From NCBI GenBank assembly GCA_937892095.1, contig CALAVC010000224.1:49893-113892 (forward strand): a stretch of 64,000 bases of DNA. The letters run 5' to 3'. Positions within the stretch are counted from its first letter, which is position 1; each line of letters starts with the position of its first letter. Under the pieces are notes generated by a model. The model had not been told where the DNA came from. It did not search any database and saw nothing but the letters and a program-made list of their open reading frames with translations. Source of the stretch: an uncultured Bacteroidales bacterium. GTDB lineage: Bacteria; Bacteroidota; Bacteroidia; Bacteroidales; Marinilabiliaceae. Positions 8,245 to 22,387 of the stretch are shown here, piece after piece. A program made the translations under genes and the position numbers.

Positions 8245-9420
8245 TTATTTTATCACTTCAAATTCCGTACGCCTATTGAGTGGCTGATTCGTTTCGCTTA
8301 TGGGTTCACGACTGCCGCGCCCTTCTGTCAAAATTCGTTCAGCCTCTATACCCTGACGCACAAGTTCGGCTTTTGCTGCTTCGGCTCGTTTTTCGCTCAC
8401 GCGCTGGTTAGCCTCGTCCGAGCCGTCTTTCGATGCATGCCCAACAACTTTTACTTTTAGGTCTGGGTATTTTTTCAGCAATTCGGCCACTTCGCCAAGA
8501 ATTGCCTTGCTCTTCGAGTTCATCTCGGCAGAGCCTACACTAAATTGTAGGTTGTTAAATTTTGTCTGCAACGCGTCCATGGCTTCTTGTGCTTCTATGC
8601 GTTGTTTCTCTGTTGCCAAAGATGCTGAGTCTGCTTCGGCACGTGCAATAGAGTCTTCGCGTGCTTTTTGAAGTTCGGCCAGTCGAGCTGCTTCAAGTGC
8701 TTTGTCGTTACTTGTTGTCGTCATTGCTGGCAGTGCTTTGCCTGTGCAGTCACACCAACTCTTGTCGTCCACTCCCTTGCAACCCTTCATCAGCAAGAAG
8801 GCAATCAACAATAGTAGCAATAGTAGCAACAGCAACCATAGCCATCTGCAACACCCTTTGCGCCCACCAAGTCGCTCTTCGTCGGCTGGTGTCATGAGCG
8901 ACGAGTAGTCAGGATACGTTTCCTCTGGCTCATTCGCATTACTTTCATTGTCCGCCACGATGAACTGACTCACTGGTGGCACATAGCCATTGATATATTC
9001 CAATCGGAAGTTGCCACGTGCAAAGTTCCCGTCGGCTTTCTCAAATTCGGCCACTGTAATGTCATACTCCTTGCCTTTTTCTATCATTCGCTCGAAGTCC
9101 GCTTTTGCCCACGTTTGCACAAAATACACATCTGTGCCATCGGTCAAGTGGATTATCTCGTCGGGCTCATCGAAGAACTCGCTATCGAGCTGCTTAGCAT
9201 CCAGCAGCTCGCCCGCACGCTGACCATTGTCGTAGCGTGTGTCTTTGACGCTATAAAAAATGTGCTTAAACCTCCCATTGTATGCTGCGTTTATCTCGCC
9301 CGGAAAGGCTGCTCGCAACTGCTCTAAAGTCGTTTCAGGATGAAGACGCAAATAGGCATGCACAATGCCAAGTGCTGTCCTATTTTGCGCTTTGCCATAC
9401 ACTTTTACTTTGTCTGCCAT
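8245..9420 (-). CDS. OmpA/MotB-like peptidoglycan-binding protein with a cytoplasmic N-terminal domain and a single poly-Leu TM segment
   Basis: No signal peptide. TM segment CCRWLWLLLLLLLLLLIAFLLM, then a coiled-coil-like stretch. A complete OmpA-like domain follows: FSVGSAEM...VVGHASKDGSDEANQRVSEKRAEAAKAELV...NRRTEFEV. Confidence 0.8.
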   Translation of the reverse strand: MADKVKVYGKAQNRTALGIVHAYLRLHPETTLEQLRAAFPGEINAAYNGRFKHIFYSVKDTRYDNGQRAGELLDAKQLDSEFFDEPDEIIHLTDGTDVYFVQTWAKADFERMIEKGKEYDITVAEFEKADGNFARGNFRLEYINGYVPPVSQFIVADNESNANEPEETYPDYSSLMTPADEERLGGRKGCCRWLWLLLLLLLLLLIAFLLMKGCKGVDDKSWCDCTGKALPAMTTTSNDKALEAARLAELQKAREDSIARAEADSASLATEKQRIEAQEAMDALQTKFNNLQFSVGSAEMNSKSKAILGEVAELLKKYPDLKVKVVGHASKDGSDEANQRVSEKRAEAAKAELVRQGIEAERILTEGRGSREPISETNQPLNRRTEFEVIK

Positions 9421-11348: not shown

Positions 11349-12113
11349 ATGGATAAAAAAGACATCTTAGGTCTCATTCCAGCTCGCTACGCTTCGACGC
11401 GTTTCCCCGGCAAACCACTTGCCGACATCGGTGGAAAGCCCATGATTCAGCGTGTCTACGAAAACGTCAGCCTCGCGCTCCCCAACGTATGTGTCGCCAC
11501 CGACGACATCCGCATTGCTCGTGCCGTAAGCAGTTTTGGAGGTCGCTATGTCCTCACATCGTCCGACCACCGCAGTGGCACCGACCGTTGTGCAGAAGCA
11601 CTCACCAAAGTCGAAGCCGAAGACGGACAAAACTACCAAGTCGTCATCAATATTCAGGGCGACGAACCATTTATTCGACCCGAGCAAGTCAACTTACTCG
11701 CGTCAGCTTTCGATAGCGACAAAGTACAAATAGCCACACTCGTCAAGAAAATCGACACACCCGACGATCTTCTCAATCCCAATAAGCCAAAAGTAGTTGT
11801 CAGCTGTCTGTCCGATGCACTATATTTTAGCCGACAACCCATCCCATACCTACGCTCCGAACCCGATGTCAACAAGTGGCTCTCGATGCACACCTACTAT
11901 AACCACATCGGACTCTATGCCTACCGTACTCGTGTCCTTCACCATCTCACCAAACTCGCACCAGGCATTCTCGAACGTGCCGAAAGCCTCGAACAACTTC
12001 GTTGGCTCGAAAATGGCTATTCCATTCGTGTGCTCACCACGACACTCGAAAGCCTCAGCGTCGACACACCTGCCGACCTCGAAGCTCTTCGCATGCGAGG
12101 ACTCATAAAATAA
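11349..12113 (+). CDS. kdsB: 3-deoxy-manno-octulosonate cytidylyltransferase (CMP-KDO synthetase)
   Basis: IPARYASTRFPGKPLADIGGKPMIQRVYE, NIQGDEP and the LEQLRWLENG motif. Length is 254 aa. Confidence 0.93.
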   Translation: MDKKDILGLIPARYASTRFPGKPLADIGGKPMIQRVYENVSLALPNVCVATDDIRIARAVSSFGGRYVLTSSDHRSGTDRCAEALTKVEAEDGQNYQVVINIQGDEPFIRPEQVNLLASAFDSDKVQIATLVKKIDTPDDLLNPNKPKVVVSCLSDALYFSRQPIPYLRSEPDVNKWLSMHTYYNHIGLYAYRTRVLHHLTKLAPGILERAESLEQLRWLENGYSIRVLTTTLESLSVDTPADLEALRMRGLIK

Positions 12114-12227
12114 ATTTATCGTTTTAACGTAACATAACAACTTATATAGCGTATAACCACCACAGTGGTCGGTGTTACCGGCTCGTGTTTTTAAAATTAA
12201 TATTATCTTTACGCAAGATTTTTTAGA

Positions 12228-12809
12228 ATGTTAGCCATGACGAAAATAGGAGCTAATCAAGACTTCTTGGAGTTCGCCTATCAGTTGTATCACACGATGC
12301 AGGCCAACGAAATTAACCTCGTCTACGAAGGAGTCGTTACTCAGGAAATAACAAAAACATTCACTGCCATGACCGAGAAAAATATGGTCAAAGCAGAGGA
12401 GAAAAGTACCGTCCAACGTAGGGTCTTCAACGTTATGGTCGAATGTCTGCAAAATATTAGCAAGCATGCCGACCCAATCTCTGGCGAAGAAGATGAAGAA
12501 CGACGTGGCATAGTCCTCGTTTCTCATGGCGAACATAGCTACAACGTCATCACTGGCAATGTAGTTAAAAAAGAAAAACGTGCAGGTCTCGAAGCCACCC
12601 TCCAACACATCAATAGCCTCGACAAAGAAGGTCTTTCAGCCGCCTACAAACAGCAAATACTCGAAGGTCGCATATCCGAAAAAGGTGGTGCTGGTCTCGG
12701 TTTTATCGACATCGCCAAGAAGAGTGGCAACAAAATCGACTATCAGTTCAAGGAACTAAACGACGATTTTGTGTTCTTCATCATCATCACCACAATTTCG
12801 CGTAGCTAA
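12228..12809 (+). CDS. SiaB-like GHKL-fold serine/threonine protein kinase (anti-sigma-factor-kinase-like)
   Basis: 193 aa. N-box-like VECLQNISKHA and G-box-like KGGAGLGFIDIAKKSG. It lies directly upstream of a DUF1987/SiaC-like gene. Confidence 0.7.
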   Translation: MLAMTKIGANQDFLEFAYQLYHTMQANEINLVYEGVVTQEITKTFTAMTEKNMVKAEEKSTVQRRVFNVMVECLQNISKHADPISGEEDEERRGIVLVSHGEHSYNVITGNVVKKEKRAGLEATLQHINSLDKEGLSAAYKQQILEGRISEKGGAGLGFIDIAKKSGNKIDYQFKELNDDFVFFIIITTISRS

Positions 12810-12859
12810 ACACTCGAAAATCAACAAAAACTAACATAAAGACAAGCATACTTGCAACA

Positions 12860-13225
12860 ATGGAAGTAATAAATATCAAAGGCACCGACGATACGCCATC
12901 TATCGTGATGGATAAAGACGCCAACATCATCGAATTCTCCGGTCGCTCGCTCCCCGAAGACGTTGCCACTTTCTATGGCCCCGCTCTCGCTTGGATAGAC
13001 GAGTTCGTCAACGACCCCAACGAACACACCGATGTCTGCTTCAAACTCGAGTATTTCAACACAGCCTCCTCTAAAATACTCCTCGACATACTCCTCAAGT
13101 TCGAGCCCATTGCCGACAATGTTACCATCAAGTGGCACTACCACGAAGACGAAGAAGACATCCTCGATGCTGGCAAAGAATACGAAGATATCGTTGAAGT
13201 ACCTTTCGAATTCGTAGAATACTAA
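12860..13225 (+). CDS. SiaC-like regulatory phosphoprotein (DUF1987 family)
   Basis: 121 aa. GTDDTPSIVMD...IEFSGRSLPED...FYGPALAWIDEF...LEYFNTASSKILLDIL...IKWHY matches the DUF1987 pattern. Thr68 lies in the YFNT motif. Confidence 0.75.
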   Translation: MEVINIKGTDDTPSIVMDKDANIIEFSGRSLPEDVATFYGPALAWIDEFVNDPNEHTDVCFKLEYFNTASSKILLDILLKFEPIADNVTIKWHYHEDEEDILDAGKEYEDIVEVPFEFVEY

Positions 13226-13395
13226 GCAATCTCCCCCACTCCTCACCACAAACACCCGATAGTCAAAGCACGGCAACTAAAGCCCGACCACTAAAAACAT
13301 AAAACAAAAAAACAAACAGTCCTTACCCCGACAACTAAATCAACACTCTAATGGGTTTGGGGCTGTTTATTTTTTCTTTCTGAATACATTTCGAG

Positions 13396-16300
13396 ATGAG
13401 CGAAGAGATACTTGAACACTTGATGAAACTCTTTGGCATCATCGCCAAGCAAGGCGGCGGTGCCAGCGGGATCGAAGTGGAGTTTGTTAGCAAATTCTTA
13501 AAATCTCAACTCGGCGACGCAGCTGTAGAACAATACCTCGAAATGTTCAAAAGCGAAGCCAACAAAGGCGTCAAGTTCGACGAGAAAGGTCGACTCATAG
13601 TCGCTGTGGGCGATAGCATGAAAGTGCTCGGCATCTGTCGCAAAGCCAACAAAGCCCTCTCCAAAGAACAAAAAGTCGTCGTACTCGTCCGACTCTACGA
13701 AATGGAACGAGTATACACCGAGGGCATAAAAAATGGCACAATCAATGTCAACGTCAACGAAGACGGGACAGACATGGCTGCCGAGACAATCAAGTTGCGC
13801 GAAGAAGTCATCAAGACTGCTGGCGAAGTATTCCGACTCGAAGTAAAGGAAATAGACAACATCAAGCTCTTCTGCAACCAAGACAACCAACACAGTTTCG
13901 ACATCGAAGACTTCCTATTGGCCGACGACGCTGCCGACGACACCTACAAAGCCGCCGTTCACGTCAAGGACGACAACCTCGATGGCTTCCTCTCCATTCT
14001 GCAAATAAAGAGTGCTGACCTATACTTCGTCAAGTACGTAGGCAGTCGCGAAGTATCCATCAATGGTCTCGCCATTGACAGCGGGACAGTCTATCCTCTC
14101 CCTGGCGGTAGCTTCATCAAGACGCCCACAGGTCTCATGTACTACACCGACATCGTAGCACGTCTGGCCAAGGAAAGCAATGTCGCCAAAATATCTTTTG
14201 AAGTCAAAGACGTCAATTTCGTCTTTAAGACTGGTGGCATCGGACTCCGACACATCAACATGGCCGAAGAGCAAGGCAAACTTGTCGGCATAATGGGTGC
14301 CTCAGGTGCAGGCAAAACAACATTGCTCAACGTCCTTTGTGGCAACGAAGCGCCAACAACGGGCGAAGTCCTTATCAACGGGCTCAACCTGCACACTCAA
14401 AAAGAACAACTCGAAGGCGTCATAGGTCTCATACCACAAGACGACCTCCTCATCGAAGAGCTAACAGTCTACCAAAACCTCTACTACAATGCTAAGCTAT
14501 GTTTCAGAAGCCTTAGCGAAGAAGAAATCAACGAACGAGTAGACAAAACACTCAAAGACCTCGGACTCTACGAGCGTAAAGACCTACAAGTAGGCTCGCC
14601 ACTCAACAAAATGATTAGTGGCGGTCAGCGTAAACGACTCAACATCGCTCTCGAACTTATCCGCGAACCGGGAATACTCTTCGTCGACGAACCAACATCA
14701 GGTCTTTCAAGTCGCGACTCCGAAAACGTCATGAATCTCTTGCGCGAACTATCGCTCAAAGGAAAACTCGTTTTTGTCGTCATTCACCAACCATCTTCGG
14801 ACATCTACAAGATGTTCGACAAAATGTTTATTCTCGACACTGGTGGATACCCAGTCTACTATGGCAACCCCACCGAAAGCATAACATATTTCAAGCGCGA
14901 AGACGGACAAGCCAATGCCGACGTCGGTCAGTGCCCCACTTGTGGTAACGTCAATCCCGAACTCGTCTTCAACATCCTCGATGCCAGCGTACGCGACGAA
15001 TTTGGCAACACACTCAACAAGCGTAAGAAAACTGCCGAAGAGTGGAATAAGTCCTACAATGAAAAAATCCTTCCCAAAATACCAACCGTACGAACCGTAG
15101 ACGAACAACCACCCAAATCGCTCGACATACCCAGTTGGTTTAAGCAATTCTGGATATACACGCAACGCGACTTCTGGGCAAAAATAAGCAACACGCAGTA
15201 TATCCTCCTCAACATACTCGAAGCGCCAGTCCTCGGTTTCGTCCTTGCCTACCTCATCCGCTACATAGTCGACCCCGACTCCGACGTCTACATCTTCCGC
15301 GAAAATGCCAACATACCCATCTACATCTTCATGGGTACGGTCGTTGCCATATTCTTCGGGCTTATCATTAGTGCCGAAGAAATATTCAAAGACGCAAAAA
15401 TACTCAAGCGCGAAGCATTCCTAAACCTCAGCCGTTCGGCCTACCTAATGTCCAAGATTGTCATTCTTATGGGCATATCTGCCATTCAGATGATACTCTT
15501 CATTCTTGTGGGCAATGCTGAAATACAATTCACAGGAATGAACTGGGAATTTTGGGTAATGCTATTCTCCGTTGCCGTCTCGTCCAACATACTCGGACTA
15601 ATCATTTCTTCCACGTTCAACTCCATCGTTACCATCTACATCATGATACCACTTATCATGATTCCTCAGATGGTGCTCGGCGGCGCTATGTTTACATTCG
15701 ATAAGCTAAACAAAGACATTTCAGCCGTTGACAAAGTGCCACTCGTGGCCGAGGTAATCCCAGCGCGCTATGCTTACGAAGGTCTCATCGTACATCAGTA
15801 CAAGAACAATAAATTCGAGACGCGATTCTTCGACGACAAGATGGCCGAAAGCCAAGCCGACTTCAAGCAAGTATACTACCTGCCCAAACTCAAAGACGCA
15901 CTCGACAACGTCCGTACTCTGCAAGAAAAACAACAAGTAGACGACAAGTCTTTCAAAGCCGACCTCGCACTCCTCCACAACGAACTCGGCAAAGAAATGC
16001 ATCGCCACCCCGAAATAGCGTTTGATAGCCACGACCGACTCACCCCCATCGACTTTGGTGCAGATGTCTATGCCGATACCAAAGCCTACATAGCCAAGCT
16101 CGAACAGCTCTACCAAGAAGCCTTTATGCAGGCCAACCAAAGTCGTGAGAACAAAATAAACTACTACCTCGAAAAGCAGAAAGACATATATAACAGACTC
16201 AAAGACGAGTGCTCCAACGAAGCCGTAGCCGATGTCGTCACCAAGACGTTCGACAAGAACAAAATCCTTCGTGATGGCGACCGACTAATACAAATTAAGG

Positions 16301-16635
16301 ACCCCATCTATCAAATGCCCGAACCAGAAGGCATACTTCGCTTCCGTTGCCACTTCTTTGCACCCTACAAATATTTCTTCGGCACGTATATTGATACAAT
16401 TTGGTTCAACGTCTTGGCCGTATGGGTCATATCCGCCTTCCTCTACTGCTTGCTCTATTACGACGTAGTCCGTAAGAGTTTTGAGAAAATTGGCGACTTC
16501 AAACTTGGCAAGAAATTAGAACCTATCATGGCTAAGATTTCTGCCACTGTTAAAACGTTATTCGCTTCGTTCCGTAAAAAGAAAGAAGAAACAAAAGCCA
16601 CAACCAAAAAGACCGAAAAAGCAACTTCTAAATAA
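13396..16635 (+). CDS. ABCG-like (ABC-2 type) transporter, fused ATPase and permease, with a ~290-aa N-terminal regulatory extension and a long insert before the last TM segment
   Basis: Walker A GIMGASGAGKTTLLNVL, signature ISGGQRKRLNIALEL, Walker B ILFVDEPTSGLS and H-loop VIHQPS. Five to six TM segments follow (aa ~590-800), then a ~220-aa helical region, a final TM IWFNVLAVWVISAFLYCLLYY and a Lys-rich tail. Confidence 0.9.
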   Translation: MSEEILEHLMKLFGIIAKQGGGASGIEVEFVSKFLKSQLGDAAVEQYLEMFKSEANKGVKFDEKGRLIVAVGDSMKVLGICRKANKALSKEQKVVVLVRLYEMERVYTEGIKNGTINVNVNEDGTDMAAETIKLREEVIKTAGEVFRLEVKEIDNIKLFCNQDNQHSFDIEDFLLADDAADDTYKAAVHVKDDNLDGFLSILQIKSADLYFVKYVGSREVSINGLAIDSGTVYPLPGGSFIKTPTGLMYYTDIVARLAKESNVAKISFEVKDVNFVFKTGGIGLRHINMAEEQGKLVGIMGASGAGKTTLLNVLCGNEAPTTGEVLINGLNLHTQKEQLEGVIGLIPQDDLLIEELTVYQNLYYNAKLCFRSLSEEEINERVDKTLKDLGLYERKDLQVGSPLNKMISGGQRKRLNIALELIREPGILFVDEPTSGLSSRDSENVMNLLRELSLKGKLVFVVIHQPSSDIYKMFDKMFILDTGGYPVYYGNPTESITYFKREDGQANADVGQCPTCGNVNPELVFNILDASVRDEFGNTLNKRKKTAEEWNKSYNEKILPKIPTVRTVDEQPPKSLDIPSWFKQFWIYTQRDFWAKISNTQYILLNILEAPVLGFVLAYLIRYIVDPDSDVYIFRENANIPIYIFMGTVVAIFFGLIISAEEIFKDAKILKREAFLNLSRSAYLMSKIVILMGISAIQMILFILVGNAEIQFTGMNWEFWVMLFSVAVSSNILGLIISSTFNSIVTIYIMIPLIMIPQMVLGGAMFTFDKLNKDISAVDKVPLVAEVIPARYAYEGLIVHQYKNNKFETRFFDDKMAESQADFKQVYYLPKLKDALDNVRTLQEKQQVDDKSFKADLALLHNELGKEMHRHPEIAFDSHDRLTPIDFGADVYADTKAYIAKLEQLYQEAFMQANQSRENKINYYLEKQKDIYNRLKDECSNEAVADVVTKTFDKNKILRDGDRLIQIKDPIYQMPEPEGILRFRCHFFAPYKYFFGTYIDTIWFNVLAVWVISAFLYCLLYYDVVRKSFEKIGDFKLGKKLEPIMAKISATVKTLFASFRKKKEETKATTKKTEKATSK

Positions 16636-16657
16636 ACAAACTAACACACCTAAGCTA

Positions 16658-17557
16658 ATGACACTCAAAAAATTATTCATAGCCCTATGCGCCACTCCTC
16701 TGCTTGTCGGCTGCACAGGAAGTAAGACATCGCAAGACACATTTGAAGATCTGCCCGACAGCCTCAAAGGTGCACCACTCCAACTATCTGAAAACGTAGT
16801 TAACGACATGATTCAAAACATCTCGTCGCCAGTCGAGATGGCCAATCAAATTAAAAATAGTGGTGCAGGCTTCGACCAGTCGGTCCTCAACTCTGCCGAC
16901 AAGATGAAAGACTACGACACAAGTTTTAAGCGTGCGCTCAATCTCGGTGCCTATAGTGCCGACCTTGGCTATATCAACACTTTCAACAAAAACACCGTAG
17001 TAGTCTCTTATCTGCTCGCCGTCAAAGAACTTGCCGATGGACTCAATGTCGGTCAGTTCCTCGACTTTAACACCCTTAGCCGACTTGCCAAGAATAGCAC
17101 CAACCTCGATAGCCTCAAGCTACTCTCGGTTAGTAGCTTCAACGAGATGGACCGTTACCTCCGTCAGCAAAATCGCTCCAATGTCTCCACAGCCATCGTT
17201 GCAGGTGCTTGGGTCGAAGGCATCTACATCACTTGCAAAGTGATTGAGCAAACCAACGACAAAGAACTCGTCAACCGACTTGGCGAACAAAAAGATATTG
17301 TCAACATCTTGCTCATCATCCTCAACAATTATCGTCAGGATGCCAACTTTGCTAACCTTGTCGCACGCGTCGACGGACTCAAGAAAATCTACGACGAAGT
17401 AAAAGTTACTACCGAATTTGGCGAACCTGTAACCAAGGAAGTCGATGGCATGCTCATAATTGAACAAAACGCCATCACAACAGTAGACATCTCGCCCGAG
17501 CAAGTAAGTCAGATAATTGAGCAAGTCAAGAACATTCGTCAGTTCATAGTAGAATAA
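16658..17557 (+). CDS. helical lipoprotein, unknown family (copy A of duplicated pair)
   Basis: Lipobox PLLVGC and a 299-aa ORF. 127/179 core residues are identical to the 18103-19020 product in a gap-free hand alignment. Confidence 0.8.
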   Translation: MTLKKLFIALCATPLLVGCTGSKTSQDTFEDLPDSLKGAPLQLSENVVNDMIQNISSPVEMANQIKNSGAGFDQSVLNSADKMKDYDTSFKRALNLGAYSADLGYINTFNKNTVVVSYLLAVKELADGLNVGQFLDFNTLSRLAKNSTNLDSLKLLSVSSFNEMDRYLRQQNRSNVSTAIVAGAWVEGIYITCKVIEQTNDKELVNRLGEQKDIVNILLIILNNYRQDANFANLVARVDGLKKIYDEVKVTTEFGEPVTKEVDGMLIIEQNAITTVDISPEQVSQIIEQVKNIRQFIVE

Positions 17558-17596
17558 AGCTCAACCGCCCCACAGAATGTAAGTAACCATTCCGCC

Positions 17597-18040
17597 ATGA
17601 AAAAAATGCTCATGTCCCTACTTGCTCTTGTAGCTTGCGCAGTCGGTTCGCACGCCCAATGTGGCGACGAACTCATGAAGCAGGCTCTCGGTGCTATGGG
17701 CAATTATCAATACATCAAAGACTTCGACATAAAGTTGCCGGCGGCATCGAGCAAGACTGGCACAAAATTTTCTGTTGTGCTCAATAGCCGCACCCACTAT
17801 CAGGTCAACATAGCCAACGGAACTACCAACACCGAAAATGTCATCGTGCAGATATTCGATGGCGATAAACTCCTCGGCACCAACTTTGCTAATGGCAAGA
17901 CATTCTCTGTTTTCCAATTTATATGCAGTAAGACAGGTGCTTATAAGCTCAACGTATTCTGCAATGGTGGTACCGATGCTTGCGCACGTGCAGTCCTATC
18001 GCTCGTCAAGCAATATTCCGAAGCCGAAATGCCTAAGTAA
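17597..18040 (+). CDS. small secreted four-Cys protein, unknown family (copy A)
   Basis: Signal peptide MKKMLMSLLALVACAVGSHAQ. The mature part has 4 Cys. 99/119 residues are identical to the 19046-19486 product in a hand alignment. Confidence 0.8.
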   Translation: MKKMLMSLLALVACAVGSHAQCGDELMKQALGAMGNYQYIKDFDIKLPAASSKTGTKFSVVLNSRTHYQVNIANGTTNTENVIVQIFDGDKLLGTNFANGKTFSVFQFICSKTGAYKLNVFCNGGTDACARAVLSLVKQYSEAEMPK

Positions 18041-18102
18041 CACCACAAATATCCAAATAGAACAAACGAAAAACACCAATCAAGCTAAGCAAATCAATCA
18101 CA

Positions 18103-19020
18103 ATGAAACTGCAATATATCTTTGGCGGCTTTGCCGTAGCATCACTCTCACTATCGGTGAGCAGTTGCATATCGGGAAATAGTAATAACGAGCTTGCAGA
18201 CATCCCCGCAGGCGACCAGATGGCCGACACATCTCTCATAGTATCGGGCGAAGTGGTCAGCGACATGATTCAGAACATCTCGTCGCCAGTCGAGATGGCC
18301 AACGAAGTCAAAGGCACGGGTGTCGGTTTCTCGCAGAACTTGCTCAACCCTGCCGGACAAGAAAACAAGTACGAAACAAGCTTCAAGAAAGCAGTCAATT
18401 TGGGTGTTTACGCTGCCGACCTTGGCTACATCAACACTTTCAACAAGAACCTTGTCGTAGTCGACTATCTTGGCTCCATCAAACGTCTGTCTGACGGCAT
18501 CGGTGTCGGTCAGTTCCTCGATTTCAACACTCTCACCCGACTCGCTAAGAACAGCACCAACCTCGATAGCCTCAAGCAACTCTCCGTAACAAGCTTCAAC
18601 GACATCGACCGCTACCTTCGTGAGCAGAACCGCTCTAATGTCTCCACGGCCATAGTGGTTGGCACATGGGTCGAAGGTCTATACATCACCAGCTCGGTTG
18701 TTAAGCAAACGGGTGATAAAGGTCTTATCGATCGTCTTGGCGAACAAAAAGACATAGTCGAAATAATTCGCATAGTTGTCAACGCATATAGCCGTTCCGA
18801 CCGCGACTACAAGAACCTTTCAACCAAGATTGAAGAGCTCCGTAAGATTTACGAGGGAGTGCGTGTAACTACCGAAATGGGTGTCCCCGAAACAAAAGAA
18901 GTTGACGGCATGCTCGTCATCGTACAAAACGAAATTACAACAATAGATTTTGCCGACGACCAAGTGGTGAACAACATCATTGGCAAGATTGCCGAAATCC
19001 GCTCAATGCTCGTCGAATAA
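18103..19020 (+). CDS. helical lipoprotein, unknown family (copy B)
   Basis: Lipobox LSVSSC and 305 aa. Paralog of the 16658-17557 product. Confidence 0.8.
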   Translation: MKLQYIFGGFAVASLSLSVSSCISGNSNNELADIPAGDQMADTSLIVSGEVVSDMIQNISSPVEMANEVKGTGVGFSQNLLNPAGQENKYETSFKKAVNLGVYAADLGYINTFNKNLVVVDYLGSIKRLSDGIGVGQFLDFNTLTRLAKNSTNLDSLKQLSVTSFNDIDRYLREQNRSNVSTAIVVGTWVEGLYITSSVVKQTGDKGLIDRLGEQKDIVEIIRIVVNAYSRSDRDYKNLSTKIEELRKIYEGVRVTTEMGVPETKEVDGMLVIVQNEITTIDFADDQVVNNIIGKIAEIRSMLVE

Positions 19021-19045
19021 CCTAACACACAAAACTAAAACGAAG

Positions 19046-19486
19046 ATGAAAAGAATATTTTTGGCTCTCGCCTTTGTATTAGGTCTTGTATGTTCTTCGC
19101 TCAGTGCCAAGGCACAGTGTGGCGACGAACTCATGAAAGCTGCTCTCGGTGCCATGGGCAACTACCAGTATATTAAAGACTTCGACATAAAACTTGCAAG
19201 TGGAGCAAGCAAAGAAGGCACCAAATTCTCTGTCGTGCTCAACAGCCGTACGCAATACCAACTCAACATTGCCAATGGCTCGTCGAACACGGAGAACGTC
19301 ATTGTCCAGATTTTTGACGGCGACAAGCTACTTGGTACAAACGCAGCCAATGGCAAGGTGTTCACAGCCTTCCAATTCCTTTGTAGCAAGACAGGTGCTT
19401 ACAAGCTCCATGTCTATTGTGAAGGCGGCTCTGAGGCTTGTGCACGTGCAGTCCTATCGCTTGTGAAGCAAATTCCTGCCAACTAA
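19046..19486 (+). CDS. small secreted four-Cys protein, unknown family (copy B)
   Basis: The internal ATG at 19046 gives MKRIFLALAFVLGLVCSSLSAKAQ, a signal peptide. Paralog of the 17597-18040 product. The longer ORF-track start overlaps the upstream gene. Confidence 0.8.
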   Translation: MKRIFLALAFVLGLVCSSLSAKAQCGDELMKAALGAMGNYQYIKDFDIKLASGASKEGTKFSVVLNSRTQYQLNIANGSSNTENVIVQIFDGDKLLGTNAANGKVFTAFQFLCSKTGAYKLHVYCEGGSEACARAVLSLVKQIPAN

Positions 19487-19594
19487 ATGCCATAGGGACA
19501 TTTTGTTAGAAACCAATTACTCACAAACAAACATCCTATTAATGCATCGAGTTAGCGAATGTGTCAGTAGTATGTTTTTCTATACACCAATTTA

Positions 19595-20548
19595 ATGCAT
19601 GAGGTCAAAACATCTTCAGATCCTTTTTCGGTCATCAGCGGTAAAGTGGTGGCTATTTTCTTCATTGTTTTAGTATTCATCGTTGTTCTATTCAATTGCT
19701 TTACTATTGTCGGTCCGTCGGAACGAGGCGTAAAGGTTACACTTGGTGAGGTTGACAATTTTGTATATCCTCCGGGCATTGTTTGGAAAGCTCCGTTCGT
19801 TACGCGAGTCAATAAATTCGTCTTGCAACCAAAGACCTACGAAGTTAGCTTCGAGGTTGGCGACAATGGAGCCATAACAAAAGACATGCAGACAGTTGGT
19901 GCAACAGTGTCGGTTCGTTATACCTACGACGAGAATCGCATTCTTGAAATTGTCAAGAAATACGCCAACGATGCCATCATAGAGTCGGCAATGCGCGACA
20001 ACATCAAAGCGAGCCTTAAAGAAACCACTGGTAAGTATTCTATCTATGCGCTCGTCGAGGAACAAAATAAGATTACGCAAGAGGTGTCGGCAGCTATACT
20101 TTCTCGCATGTCTGACTACCCCATTGCCATTGCTCAGACCACCATTACCAATTGGGATTGGAGCGACGACTTTGACAAGCAGATAAAGGAGACGGCTAAC
20201 CGCAATCAGCAGATTAAAGTGGCCGAAGCCGAAGCCAACATAGCAGCCGCACAAGCACAAAAACTTGTCAAAGAGGCAGAGGCTAAAAAGCAAGCTGCAG
20301 AGCTCGACGCTCAGGCTAAGATTGCAGCAGCTCGTGGCGCTGCCGAAGCCAAAAAATTGGCTGCCGATGCGCAGGCTTATGAGAATCAGCAGATTGCCAA
20401 AAATATGCAGACCATGCAAGCACAATGGAACTACGAGATAGAACTCGAACGTGCCAAGCGTTGGAATGGTAAGCAAGTCTCCGACGCAGCCTACATTGTG
20501 CCTGGCACAGGTGCTGTGGTGCCACTTACTGGCATTAAGTCGAAGTAG
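19595..20548 (+). CDS. SPFH/band-7 (prohibitin/stomatin-like) membrane protein with an Ala/Lys/Glu-rich C-terminal coiled coil
   Basis: N-terminal TM AIFFIVLVFIVVLF followed by FTIVGPSERGVKVTLGEV, typical of SPFH domains. The C-terminal region KVAEAEANIAAAQAQKLVKEAEAKKQAAELDAQAKIAAARGAAEAKKLAADAQ is coiled-coil-like. Confidence 0.8.
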   Translation: MHEVKTSSDPFSVISGKVVAIFFIVLVFIVVLFNCFTIVGPSERGVKVTLGEVDNFVYPPGIVWKAPFVTRVNKFVLQPKTYEVSFEVGDNGAITKDMQTVGATVSVRYTYDENRILEIVKKYANDAIIESAMRDNIKASLKETTGKYSIYALVEEQNKITQEVSAAILSRMSDYPIAIAQTTITNWDWSDDFDKQIKETANRNQQIKVAEAEANIAAAQAQKLVKEAEAKKQAAELDAQAKIAAARGAAEAKKLAADAQAYENQQIAKNMQTMQAQWNYEIELERAKRWNGKQVSDAAYIVPGTGAVVPLTGIKSK

Positions 20549-20580
20549 CGACTATTTAATTTACCCTCTGACATATAGTG

Positions 20581-20620
20581 AGCCTCTACATGATATGTGT
20601 AGAGGCTTTATTTTGTTTTT
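20581..20620 (+). terminator. intrinsic terminator closing the 12228-20548 gene string
   Basis: Perfect 10-bp stem agcctctaca / tgtagaggct with a 7-nt loop, followed by ttattttgttttt. Confidence 0.8.
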
Positions 20621-20655: not shown

Positions 20656-21564
20656 ATGAAACATTTAACATCTGTAATTGGTTTGTTGTTTGCACTTTGC
20701 GCGACGGCACAAGAATATAGTGTTGAGTTATCTCGTCGCAACAGTCTATATTTGGTAGACACCAAAATTGGTGGGCATACCGAAAAATTCACATTTGACA
20801 CAGGTGCATCATGTACTATGATCAATAGCGACCTATGCACGTTGTTAAAAAGTGAGGGACACCTTACGGAACCTCAACTTTCGACGGTGCTCGTAACGAT
20901 GGCCGATGAAAGTGAAATAGAATGTCGTGTGGTCTACATAGACGAACTGGAAATAGGCAGTGCAAAATTTCAGGACGTCAAAGCGTTATGCGTGCCAGGG
21001 TCTGATGCAGAACCCCTTGTTGGGCATACTATTATCGAACGCATGAGCCGTCATTCGTTTCAGGGGAATAGGCTGACTTTTGAGCTATTGCCAGCCGAAA
21101 GGCAGAAGTACTTGATGGATTGCAATTGGGCAAGCGATCTTCTTAATTATGGAAGTGGATCGGAAGCAGAACTTCAAGAGGTGTATGATATGTTAACGCC
21201 ATATTTTAATAATCAAACGATTGTTTCCGAAGACTTGGATATTTATTGTAGGGCAGTGTATAACCTTGATAGGTTTGATGAGTTTGTAGTGGCATTCGAG
21301 AGGTTGGCCGAAGACAAATCATACGACACACCGACTGACATGTACGATTGTTTGACAGTCGCCTATGCTGTGATAGGCAAACTGAGCGAAGCAAAAATGT
21401 ATCTTGACAAATACGTGCAGAGCGAAGATACGGACCAAGAAATAGTTGGTTACCTACATTTTATGCTTGCCGAGAAAATGTTGTACGCAGGGCAGTATGA
21501 CGAAGTCTTGCACTATGTTGGTCTGCTAAAAGAAATGAATTATAAGCCAGAGAAAGATGAATAA
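20656..21564 (+). CDS. secreted retropepsin-like aspartic protease with a helical (TPR-like) C-terminal half
   Basis: Signal peptide MKHLTSVIGLLFALCATAQ. Catalytic motif FTFDTGASCTMIN (D-T-G-A-S) and a later LVGHTIIERM flap-like motif. The ATG at 20656 is preferred. Confidence 0.7.
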   Translation: MKHLTSVIGLLFALCATAQEYSVELSRRNSLYLVDTKIGGHTEKFTFDTGASCTMINSDLCTLLKSEGHLTEPQLSTVLVTMADESEIECRVVYIDELEIGSAKFQDVKALCVPGSDAEPLVGHTIIERMSRHSFQGNRLTFELLPAERQKYLMDCNWASDLLNYGSGSEAELQEVYDMLTPYFNNQTIVSEDLDIYCRAVYNLDRFDEFVVAFERLAEDKSYDTPTDMYDCLTVAYAVIGKLSEAKMYLDKYVQSEDTDQEIVGYLHFMLAEKMLYAGQYDEVLHYVGLLKEMNYKPEKDE

Positions 21565-22387
21565 GAAAGTATTGCTTGTTTGGGGGGGTCTGATGTGTCT
21601 TGAGGGTGCAAAAGCCCAAGAGGTTGACTATCCGTGTAGTAGCAATATTGCAGATGGAAAATATGAAAAGGCCGAGAAGAAAATATTTAAAGCCCTGCAA
21701 AAAGAGCCAGACGCAACGGTGTATTTTGCAGCATATATGTTATATGCACAGGTGGCATACCCATCCTACGATGTCGAAAAGGCTTATGACTATCTGGAAA
21801 AAAGTCGTGAGGCTTATGGCTCGTCCGAAGAAAAACGACAAGTCAAGTTGCAAAAACATGGTTATTCGACAACGCTATACGATGTCGAAGCCGAAAAAAT
21901 ATGTCAGTCGGCTCTCGACCTTGCCGACCAAGCAAAGACAGTCGATGCATACGAGCATTACTTGACACACTACAAGCGAGCCACCGAAAATCAGCATAAA
22001 ACGGCCACTAACAGTCGAAACGCACTAATCTTTGAGAATGTTGTCAGTGTCAATACAGTCGAGGAATATGAGCGTTTTATAAAGAAATATCCTATGGCTC
22101 TCGAAGTGCCACGAGCCAAAATGCTTCGCAACAAGAAAGCCTACGAAGAGGCCGATCTGGTTGGCACTGTGGCGGCATACAAAGAGTTTGTGAGTCGCTA
22201 TCCACAAGCCACCGAATGTGGGCAAGCTATGTCCAAGATATACAAACTCGAATATGATTCGACCACGAAGCAAAATGTCGAGCAGTTGTCCACAATTGGC
22301 TATGGACAAAGTCGACCAGCTGCAAACAACAACACTGCCGATGGTCGCAAGAAGAATAGACGTGTAGAAATAAAGTTTATCAAGTAG
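21557..22387 (+). CDS. secreted repeat protein (three TVxxYxxF/YxxxYP repeats) ending in only the last ~30 aa of an OmpA-like domain
   Basis: Signal-like N-terminus. Repeats TVDAYEHYLTHYK, TVEEYERFIKKYP and TVAAYKEFVSRYP. The C-terminus STIGYGQSRPAANNNTADGRKKNRRVEIKFIK matches just the final OmpA_C strands. Confidence 0.6.
   Translation: MNKKVLLVWGGLMCLEGAKAQEVDYPCSSNIADGKYEKAEKKIFKALQKEPDATVYFAAYMLYAQVAYPSYDVEKAYDYLEKSREAYGSSEEKRQVKLQKHGYSTTLYDVEAEKICQSALDLADQAKTVDAYEHYLTHYKRATENQHKTATNSRNALIFENVVSVNTVEEYERFIKKYPMALEVPRAKMLRNKKAYEEADLVGTVAAYKEFVSRYPQATECGQAMSKIYKLEYDSTTKQNVEQLSTIGYGQSRPAANNNTADGRKKNRRVEIKFIK

Follow-up and report, generated by a model that had tools for sequence, protein, structure and literature searches.

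The window analyzed here is a stretch of 64,000 nucleotides (nt) from an uncultured Bacteroidales bacterium (contig CALAVC010000224.1), and the system in question lies between its positions 12228 and 20620, where eight open reading frames (ORFs) follow one another on the plus strand. An earlier note on this DNA had proposed that all eight genes form one envelope system built around a SiaB/SiaC-type phospho-switch and an ATP-binding cassette (ABC) exporter, and the ORF listing and a hairpin search bore out the genes, coordinates, spacings, motifs and terminator described there. The first gene, referred to here as siaB (12228..12809), encodes a SiaB-family GHKL-type Ser/Thr protein kinase of 193 amino acids (aa), or 190 aa from the start at M4 chosen by the gene caller. 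It is followed by siaC (12860..13225), whose 121-aa product is a SiaC-family (DUF1987, STAS-related) phosphoprotein with the acceptor Thr68 in the motif LEYFNTASSK, and by the gene for the ABC exporter (13396-16635; 1079 aa). Next come two pairs of genes, each encoding a lipoprotein and a small secreted protein: lipoprotein A (16658..17557; 299 aa), secreted protein A (17597..18040; 147 aa), lipoprotein B (18103..19020; 305 aa) and secreted protein B (19046..19486; 146 aa), where the B copies are paralogues of the A copies. The eighth gene (19595..20548) encodes an SPFH/Band_7 membrane protein. The seventh gene most likely starts at the ATG at 19046, which lies within a longer ORF beginning with a TTG at 18980.

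The gaps between the eight genes are 50, 170, 22, 39, 62, 25 and 108 nt, and siaB starts 114 nt past the end of kdsB (11349-12113). A terminator-like hairpin 3' of kdsB (12167..12183, plus strand), with a 7-bp stem containing four GC pairs and followed by a T run, is the likely upstream boundary of the unit; it is weaker than the strong intrinsic-terminator-like hairpin 3' of the SPFH gene (20580..20618, plus strand), which has a 13-bp stem and a T run and was placed at 20580-20608 by the hairpin search. An Rfam scan for structured RNAs matched only a distant tRNA. The exact contig is also present in a public metagenome assembly (ENA ERZ842392; 134.7 kb), with identical gene calls.

The family assignments made in the earlier note, namely a SiaB-family kinase, a SiaC protein with Thr68, an ABCG-like exporter with a nucleotide-binding domain (NBD) ahead of its transmembrane domain (TMD), and a Band_7 protein, were all confirmed in searches with hidden Markov models (HMMs). 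The kinase scored 167 bits against NF038262 (SiaB_fam_kinase, cut-off 85) and 141 bits against PF19788, and it matched the SiaB chain of the Pseudomonas aeruginosa SiaB-SiaC complex (PDB 6kko_A) with an E value of 7e-17. Across 69 orthologues its N-box VMVECLQNISKHA was invariant and its G-box GGAGLGFIDIAKKSG nearly so. The phosphoprotein scored 120 bits against PF09345 (SiaC) and matched the SiaC chain of the same complex (6kko_C) with an E value of 3e-14, its Thr68 aligning with Thr68 of SiaC. The LEYFNTASSK motif was invariant in 69 SiaC orthologues and appeared as YFNTAS[SA]K in more distant loci. Both proteins fell far below the NCBIfam equivalog cut-offs (88 vs 225 bits for SiaB and 72 vs 150 bits for SiaC), and thus are members of the wider families, as a distinct subfamily, rather than orthologues of SiaB and SiaC. 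In P. aeruginosa, SiaC has been described as structurally STAS-related; its Thr68 is phosphorylated by SiaB, and phosphorylated Thr68 blocks the binding of SiaC to its target. SiaC binds and activates SiaD, which is encoded next to it, and the authors of that work proposed that DUF1987 proteins regulate adjacent proteins (PMC8457831).

Over its core, the exporter matched ABC_tran at aa 284-435 (E value 1.2e-31) and then ABC2_membrane at aa 584-801 (6.5e-19). It scored 262 bits against TIGR00955, below the subfamily cut-off, with aa 286-811 aligned to model positions 43-560 of 617. The closest solved relatives of the core in a PDB sequence search were Cdr1/Pdr5, ABCA3/4/1 and ABCG2/5/8/1. The ATPase motifs of the NBD (aa 268-500; 14197..14895), as read from the translation, are all intact: Walker A GASGAGKTT, signature SGGQ, Walker B ILFVDEPTSGL and H-loop VIHQPS. 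Five transmembrane helices of an ABC-2/ABCG-type membrane domain, identified by ABC2_membrane and hydropathy, follow at aa 602-768 (15199..15699). A hydrophilic domain of about 230 aa (aa 769-1000; 15700..16395) separates the fifth from the sixth transmembrane helix (aa 1001-1022), which together with a Lys-rich cytoplasmic tail, assigned from hydropathy and charge count, makes up aa 1001-1079 (16396..16635). Since an odd number of transmembrane helices precedes the hydrophilic domain, and the last helix and the Lys-rich tail come after it, this domain is predicted to be periplasmic. It is conserved in all relatives, at 27-62% identity.

The earlier note had also drawn attention to an N-terminal extension of the exporter. 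This extension is real, and consists of a cytoplasmic TerB-like helical domain (aa 1-168; 13396..13899) and a divergent, likewise cytoplasmic FHA-like β-sandwich (aa 173-249; 13912..14142). The TerB family (PF05099) was carried by 30 of the 36 homologues of the exporter N-terminus (aa 1-270), and a weak TerB match was found in the exporter orthologue of one distant locus (L089). No TerB match was obtained with Pfam for the N-terminus of the window exporter, even at an E value of 10; the window protein probably escapes detection owing to a clade-specific insertion of about 33 aa, at aa ~105-137 (13700-13810). The Asp of a KQDGG motif, kept in nearly all other TerB-like homologues, has been lost in the window's clade, which suggests that the TerB ligand site there is altered or lost. 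An AlphaFold model of aa 1-280 (predicted local distance difference test score, pLDDT, 87.8; predicted template modeling score 0.84) placed helices at aa 3-168 and the β-domain at aa 173-249, with a pLDDT of 94-97 over aa 170-250. When the β-domain was searched with Foldseek, all 50 listed PDB matches were FHA domains, with a probability near 1 for most, target-normalized template modeling scores of up to 0.56, and E values of 0.05-0.45. The best PDB match to a profile of this region was the FHA domain of Mek1, a weak hit (E value 0.21), and the Pfam FHA family was undetected in the window exporter.

The lipoproteins and small secreted proteins are of a different kind, in that no family could be assigned to them. 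Both lipoproteins have a lipobox, with the modified Cys at C19 in A (LLVGC19) and C22 in B, and they share 58% identity; the two secreted proteins share 72%. Pfam, NCBIfam and PDB sequence and profile searches, distant members included, returned nothing above noise for either protein, and none of the distant lipoprotein relatives tested had a Pfam family. Matches to LolA3_fam were discarded, as they reached 13 and 12 bits against a cut-off of 83 and lay mostly over the signal peptide. A model of lipoprotein A (pLDDT 75.8) showed a helical bundle, a β-hairpin and a C-terminal helix, and had no match among PDB folds in Foldseek (best E value 1.3, template modeling score at most 0.25). In a profile search of 1.84 billion cluster representatives, 2,699 lipoprotein relatives were found at an E value of 1e-3 or below and 2,080 at 1e-10 or below, each standing for a cluster at 50% identity. 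In both copies of the secreted protein the signal peptide ends AQ|C. The four Cys pointed out in the earlier note all belong to the mature part; across the family only two of these four, C22 and C129, are nearly invariant. The family also has a conserved N-terminal helix, QCGDELMKQAL..QYIKDF, and the body of the protein, judged by eye, is probably β-rich. By the sequence searches made here, both are orphan families.

In order to compare the gene neighborhood among relatives, loci were collected with an alignment of lipoprotein homologues, a scan of one genome per GTDB species, and tblastn with the window proteins. This gave 78 loci, which belong to Marinilabiliaceae (Anaerophaga, Marinilabilia, Carboxylicivirga, Saccharicrinis, Thermophagus, Breznakibacter and Labilibacter) or to uncultured Bacteroidales of gut, rumen and sediment. 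Wherever the upstream flank was long enough, in 67 loci out of 67, siaB, siaC and the ABC gene directly preceded the lipoprotein gene, always in this order and all on its strand, and the secreted-protein gene came directly after the lipoprotein gene in 75 of 75. The second lipoprotein/secreted-protein pair occurred in only 19 of the 78 loci, all of them in the gut/rumen clade closest to the window. The two tandem pairs noticed earlier are therefore present, but they reflect a clade-specific duplication and are not a defining feature of the system. This pattern delimits a conserved unit of five genes, represented by seven in the window. The near-perfect synteny across Marinilabiliaceae argues that SiaB and SiaC are functionally tied to the exporter and the pairs, as the earlier note had proposed.

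The same comparison separates the SPFH gene from the unit. Its product is a clear Band_7 protein (85.6 bits, E value 5.5e-24), and the earlier note's full model, which unites all eight genes in one envelope system and makes the SPFH protein a scaffold for the exporter complex, draws on the position of the gene on the same strand, 108 nt past the last pair, with no terminator predicted in between and a strong one after it. However, a 10-kb search around the cassette found no SPFH homologue in any of the 78 loci, and this count covers the closest relative, whose lipoprotein is 85% identical, and the 18 other loci with a duplicated pair. Nor was an SPFH gene seen in the distant cassettes inspected. 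Neighborhood co-occurrence thus holds for siaB, siaC and the ABC, lipoprotein and secreted-protein genes but does not extend to the SPFH gene, which was rejected as a component on synteny, and we regard the eight-gene model as very improbable. The SPFH gene is an unrelated neighbor, perhaps co-transcribed with the unit or sharing its terminator in this genome. Homologues of kdsB and of the aspartic protease gene downstream were likewise found near the cassette in none of the 78 loci; neither is a conserved neighbor, and both were rejected as members of the unit.

The flanking ORFs of the 78 loci were clustered and representatives scanned against Pfam. In most free-living relatives the cassette is preceded on the same strand by a block encoding two CheR proteins, a CheB protein, a small GAF protein and a transmembrane-GAF-PAS-PAS-SpoIIE protein of the PP2C phosphatase family. 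The gene for this last protein, of 870 aa, ends about 34 nt before siaB in most of these genomes, and the upstream PP2C is the equivalent of the SiaA phosphatase. The block was seen upstream of siaB in loci L016-L079 (for example L057:556-5837), and also in L087, L089 and L091-L098. There was no obvious methyl-accepting protein and no obvious CheA or CheW in the CheR/CheB-bearing loci inspected.

In the 19 loci of the gut/rumen clade, the CheR/CheB/GAF/PP2C block was absent and no PP2C gene was found within 10 kb. The window agrees with its clade: tblastn with the cassette types found no PP2C, CheR, CheB or methyl-accepting chemotaxis protein (MCP)-like gene in the 64 kb, and no GG[DE]EF motif was found in window ORFs of at least 100 aa, both searches being of limited sensitivity. 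The earlier note had reported this absence of PP2C and GGDEF genes correctly, but the argument it built on it, that the transporter must be the output as there is no PP2C, does not carry over to the family, since it rests on a lineage-specific loss, and most relatives have a sensory PP2C gene right ahead of siaB. Judged by gene content, the system is a full SiaA/B/C-type switch in most relatives. With no phosphatase nearby in the gut/rumen clade, dephosphorylation must there come from a gene elsewhere. SiaB is the best-conserved cassette protein within the gut clade (83-92% identity, vs 70-85% for the ABC protein), which indicates that it is still under selection and in use without a neighboring PP2C. 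Many gut-clade loci have a gene with an sCache-HAMP-MCP-signal architecture, either some 0.6 kb ahead of siaB or, as a paralogue, further downstream (for example L003:3048-4820, L012:3156-4934 and L018:3106-4887).

Homologues of the exporter N-terminus led to the cassette in more distant Bacteroidota. A metagenome-assembled genome of the Flavobacteriales (L081) has genes for a TPR-PAS-PP2C protein, SiaB, SiaC and the ABC exporter, and marine-sediment Bacteroidota (L082 and L083) have the same arrangement with a GAF-PAS-PP2C protein. The full cassette was found in L086 and L087, and the cassette was also present in L089 and L090, from other Bacteroidota. Three distant lipoprotein representatives, picked by the length of their contigs and blind to their context, all lay in a cassette (3/3). 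In one of them, L088, a PP2C-PP2C-SiaB-SiaB-SiaC-ABC series is convergent with two lipoprotein/secreted-protein pairs, and so the association survives rearrangement. This recurrence, the convergent layout included, extends the link of SiaB and SiaC to the exporter and pairs beyond the 67 syntenic loci. The two SiaB-family kinase genes of L088 (15961-17153, minus strand) stand in tandem ahead of a single SiaC gene, as do two PP2C genes, one Reg_prop/Y_Y_Y-SpoIIE and one PAS-SpoIIE, which suggests that several inputs converge on one phosphoprotein there. No GGDEF, sigma or anti-sigma output domain was seen in the cassettes inspected.

We also scanned metagenomes with a broader lipoprotein alignment, followed by iterative HMM searches of all ORFs. 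The secreted-protein gene came directly after the lipoprotein gene in 64 of 68 metagenome loci. Among the 27 with flank on both sides, an ABC gene lay within 10 kb in 20, a SiaC gene in 19 and a PP2C gene in 16. This census describes a nested architecture, in which the lipoprotein/secreted-protein pair is the widest module and is usually joined to the exporter, while genes for SiaC, SiaB and a sensor PP2C usually stand ahead of the exporter gene.

These observations are best compared with the SiaABCD system of P. aeruginosa, which consists of the PP2C phosphatase SiaA, the kinase SiaB, the phosphoprotein SiaC and the cyclase SiaD. Its kinase and phosphoprotein are homologous to those of the cassette, and the Y-x-N-T acceptor motif is common to both systems. 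The siaA gene is directly upstream, as is the PP2C gene of most relatives, and the gene for the regulated protein comes right after siaC, where the cassette has its ABC gene. Unlike SiaABCD, the cassette has as its apparent output an ABC exporter with periplasmic partners rather than a GGDEF cyclase, its phosphatase includes sensor domains of the GAF and PAS types and has CheR/CheB genes beside it, and the window's clade is without a nearby phosphatase. By this analogy we propose, at a probability of roughly 0.6, that the system is a SiaABC-type partner switch whose output is the ABC exporter complex instead of a diguanylate cyclase.

Taking the observed families, catalytic and acceptor residues, domain architecture and neighborhood as a starting point, we infer the phosphotransfer, the contact between SiaC and the exporter, the topology, the direction of transport and the substrate as follows. 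The SiaB-family kinase would phosphorylate Thr68 of the SiaC-family protein, and in most relatives the membrane-bound GAF-PAS-PP2C sensor phosphatase would remove the phosphate. Depending on its phosphorylation state, SiaC would or would not bind the exporter on the cytoplasmic side, at the N-terminal head or at the NBD, and this binding would switch ATP-driven export on or off. The exporter itself is a half-size ABCG-like transporter with the TerB-like and FHA-like domains as its cytoplasmic regulatory head, and it would hand an envelope component to the periplasmic lipoprotein/secreted-protein pair. This component would most plausibly be a lipid or glycolipid-like molecule, given the ABCG/ABCA-type fold. 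The gating step is modeled on SiaC-SiaD and on the binding of MlaB, a STAS protein, to the ABC ATPase MlaF, which is weakened by a phosphomimetic residue at the equivalent Thr (PMC7367683). The activation of the FHA-bearing exporter Rv1747 by Thr phosphorylation (PMC3138270) serves as a further precedent.

Several findings weigh against this proposal. In this genome the cassette falls short of a complete switch, as no PP2C gene was found within 10 kb in its clade or in the 64-kb window. The placement of aa 769-1000 in the periplasm, at the position of the extracellular loop 3 (EL3) of ABCG proteins, is a prediction from hydropathy. In a sequence-level comparison, the canonical Asn of the SxNGT loop of FHA domains is replaced in the FHA-like domain by a variable Q, R or E, and the Gly-Arg and Ser-x-x-His loops have no alignable counterpart. 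The lineage of L080, L084 and L085 has the ABC, lipoprotein and secreted-protein genes without adjacent SiaB or SiaC genes, and seven of the 27 diverse metagenome loci have the lipoprotein/secreted-protein pair but no ABC gene within 10 kb; taken together, these loci indicate that the modules can work apart. The seven are the most divergent loci, and five of them place the pair directly after polA. These polA-linked pairs (L154, L155, L159, L160 and L169) encode lipoproteins that are about 30-34% identical, are flanked by genes for large secreted proteins, and have no ABC or SiaB/SiaC genes within 10 kb. Such lone pairs imply that the function of the pair does not strictly need the exporter. 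Finally, the spacer between siaC and the ABC gene in the window (13226..13395, plus strand) is 170 nt long, vs 35-45 nt in free-living relatives. It is A/C-rich, with a possible hairpin and U run in its 3' part, shortly ahead of the ABC start, and could split the siaBC and ABC transcripts in this genome. The hairpin region could be an attenuator or an internal promoter region; the predicted fold of the spacer was not statistically distinctive (z = -1.65).

Some of these points would fit an alternative in which the genes are co-located or co-expressed without direct gating, so that SiaB and SiaC regulate a target elsewhere, such as an enzyme or a transcription factor, and the ABC, lipoprotein and secreted-protein genes merely share an operon or a condition of expression with them. 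The trio without adjacent SiaB/SiaC in L080, L084 and L085 is what this explanation would expect, as are L124, where the ABC gene is present without detected SiaB or SiaC, and L120 and L121, where SiaB was not detected; the long spacer of the window could hold the separate promoter or attenuator that it would call for. However, in 67 of 67 genome loci, and with few exceptions in the distant cassettes as well, siaC lies immediately 5' of the ABC gene, the gap usually being 30-100 nt, and the association outlasts the rearrangement of other genes seen in L088. The inspected cassettes offered no GGDEF, sigma or anti-sigma domain as another output, and the target of the sole characterized SiaC is the product of a neighboring gene (PMC8457831). 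For these reasons we consider co-location without gating unlikely.

The FHA-like domain allows a second alternative, in which phosphorylated Thr68 of SiaC docks on this domain and activates or clusters the exporter, so that the kinase delivers an ON signal. The fold lies directly N-terminal to the NBD, FHA domains read phosphothreonine, and Rv1747 of Mycobacterium tuberculosis, an FHA-bearing ABC exporter, is activated by Thr phosphorylation through its FHA domains (PMC3138270). Recruitment of this kind would also explain why the gut clade keeps the kinase and SiaC without a nearby phosphatase. The replaced Asn and the lack of an alignable counterpart for the two loops described above speak against it, as do the Foldseek E values of just 0.05-0.45, and in the one characterized case phosphorylation of SiaC abolishes binding to its partner (PMC8457831). 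We therefore regard phospho-dependent recruitment as improbable, and favor the SiaABC-type partner switch acting on the exporter.

A wider reading of the partner switch is more tentative. The cassette may represent a Bacteroidota-wide envelope export pathway in which SiaC gates the exporter through the TerB/FHA-like head and the orphan lipoprotein/secreted-protein pair acts as a new type of periplasmic lipid or glycolipid acceptor. We consider this conceivable, with the odds somewhat against the proposal in all its parts.

Three other known transport systems resemble the cassette in part. In MlaFEDB of Escherichia coli, a small STAS-type protein is likewise coupled to an envelope ABC transporter, the Thr at the MlaB interaction surface is conserved, and the substrate passes to or from periplasmic partners. 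This is a likeness in function only: Pfam and NCBIfam searches with the eight proteins found no relation in sequence to MlaB, MlaE or MlaD and no MCE protein, and the cassette transporter is of the fused NBD-TMD, ABCG type. No kinase or phosphatase is known for MlaB, whereas the cassette encodes both, the phosphatase in relatives. Rv1747, which is regulated by PknF, has the same order of FHA-type domain(s), NBD and ABC-2-type membrane domain, and in both cases a Ser/Thr kinase is encoded in the same operon; for Rv1747, Thr phosphorylation controls activity (PMC3138270). Unlike Rv1747, with its N-terminal FHA domains, the cassette exporter has one divergent FHA-like domain that lacks the phosphothreonine-binding Asn and stands after a TerB-like domain. 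The only kinase of the cassette is of the GHKL/SiaB and not the Hanks type, its phospho-acceptor is a separate small protein, and it has in addition a large predicted periplasmic domain and lipoprotein/secreted-protein partners. Eukaryotic ABCG/PDR and ABCA exporters share with the cassette exporter an NBD ahead of the TMD, an ABC-2/type V membrane domain, and a large extracytoplasmic insertion before the last transmembrane helix. Unlike them, the cassette protein is a bacterial half-transporter with TerB- and FHA-like domains, and its extracytoplasmic domain is unrelated to theirs in sequence. An assignment of the locus to an anti-phage defense system was tried and rejected, PADLOC having returned generic P-loop ATPase matches for the ABC protein only and none for the other proteins.

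Two further features of the flanks were noted. On the minus strand at 8245-9420, between a sigma-54 activator/LptE/SecG block and dtd-mazG-deoC-kdsB, lies the gene for a 391-aa protein that ends in an OmpA domain, annotated on the contig as PF00691, and has an unusual poly-Leu membrane segment, CCRWLWLLLLLLLLLLIAFLL, in its interior. Directly past the terminator, at 20656-22387 on the plus strand, are genes for two secreted proteins: a retropepsin-like aspartic protease, annotated on the contig as PF13650/PF13975, and a protein of 276 aa with a C-terminal sequence that, judged by eye, is OmpA-like. These two genes overlap by 8 nt and are not conserved neighbors of the cassette.

In agreement with the earlier note, no described function for this gene combination was found in the searchable literature, and a SiaABC-type switch with an ABC exporter as output is not described in the searchable full texts. 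All domains are of a known kind except for the two orphan families; it is the combination for which no description was found. It points to a second output for the SiaABC switch, which is otherwise unexplored beyond the single characterized cyclase output of Pseudomonas, with the switch hard-wired to an ABC exporter in many Bacteroidota, gut and rumen lineages included. Phosphoregulation of an ABC transporter through a STAS-like partner was suggested for MlaB without ever being tied to a kinase, and the cassette unites a kinase, a phosphatase, an acceptor and a transporter in a single operon. In bacteria not known for flagellar chemotaxis, a sensory front end of CheR, CheB, GAF and PAS proteins is of note, and two large orphan families gain a working context in adjoining an exporter. 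Since the cassette is present in cultured Marinilabilia, Anaerophaga, Carboxylicivirga and Saccharicrinis, the idea is directly testable. Should the wider reading set out above hold, no earlier natural case would be known in which a dedicated kinase/phosphatase/STAS-like module switches an ABC transporter, and it would provide a function for a lipoprotein family of about 2,700 clusters at 50% identity.

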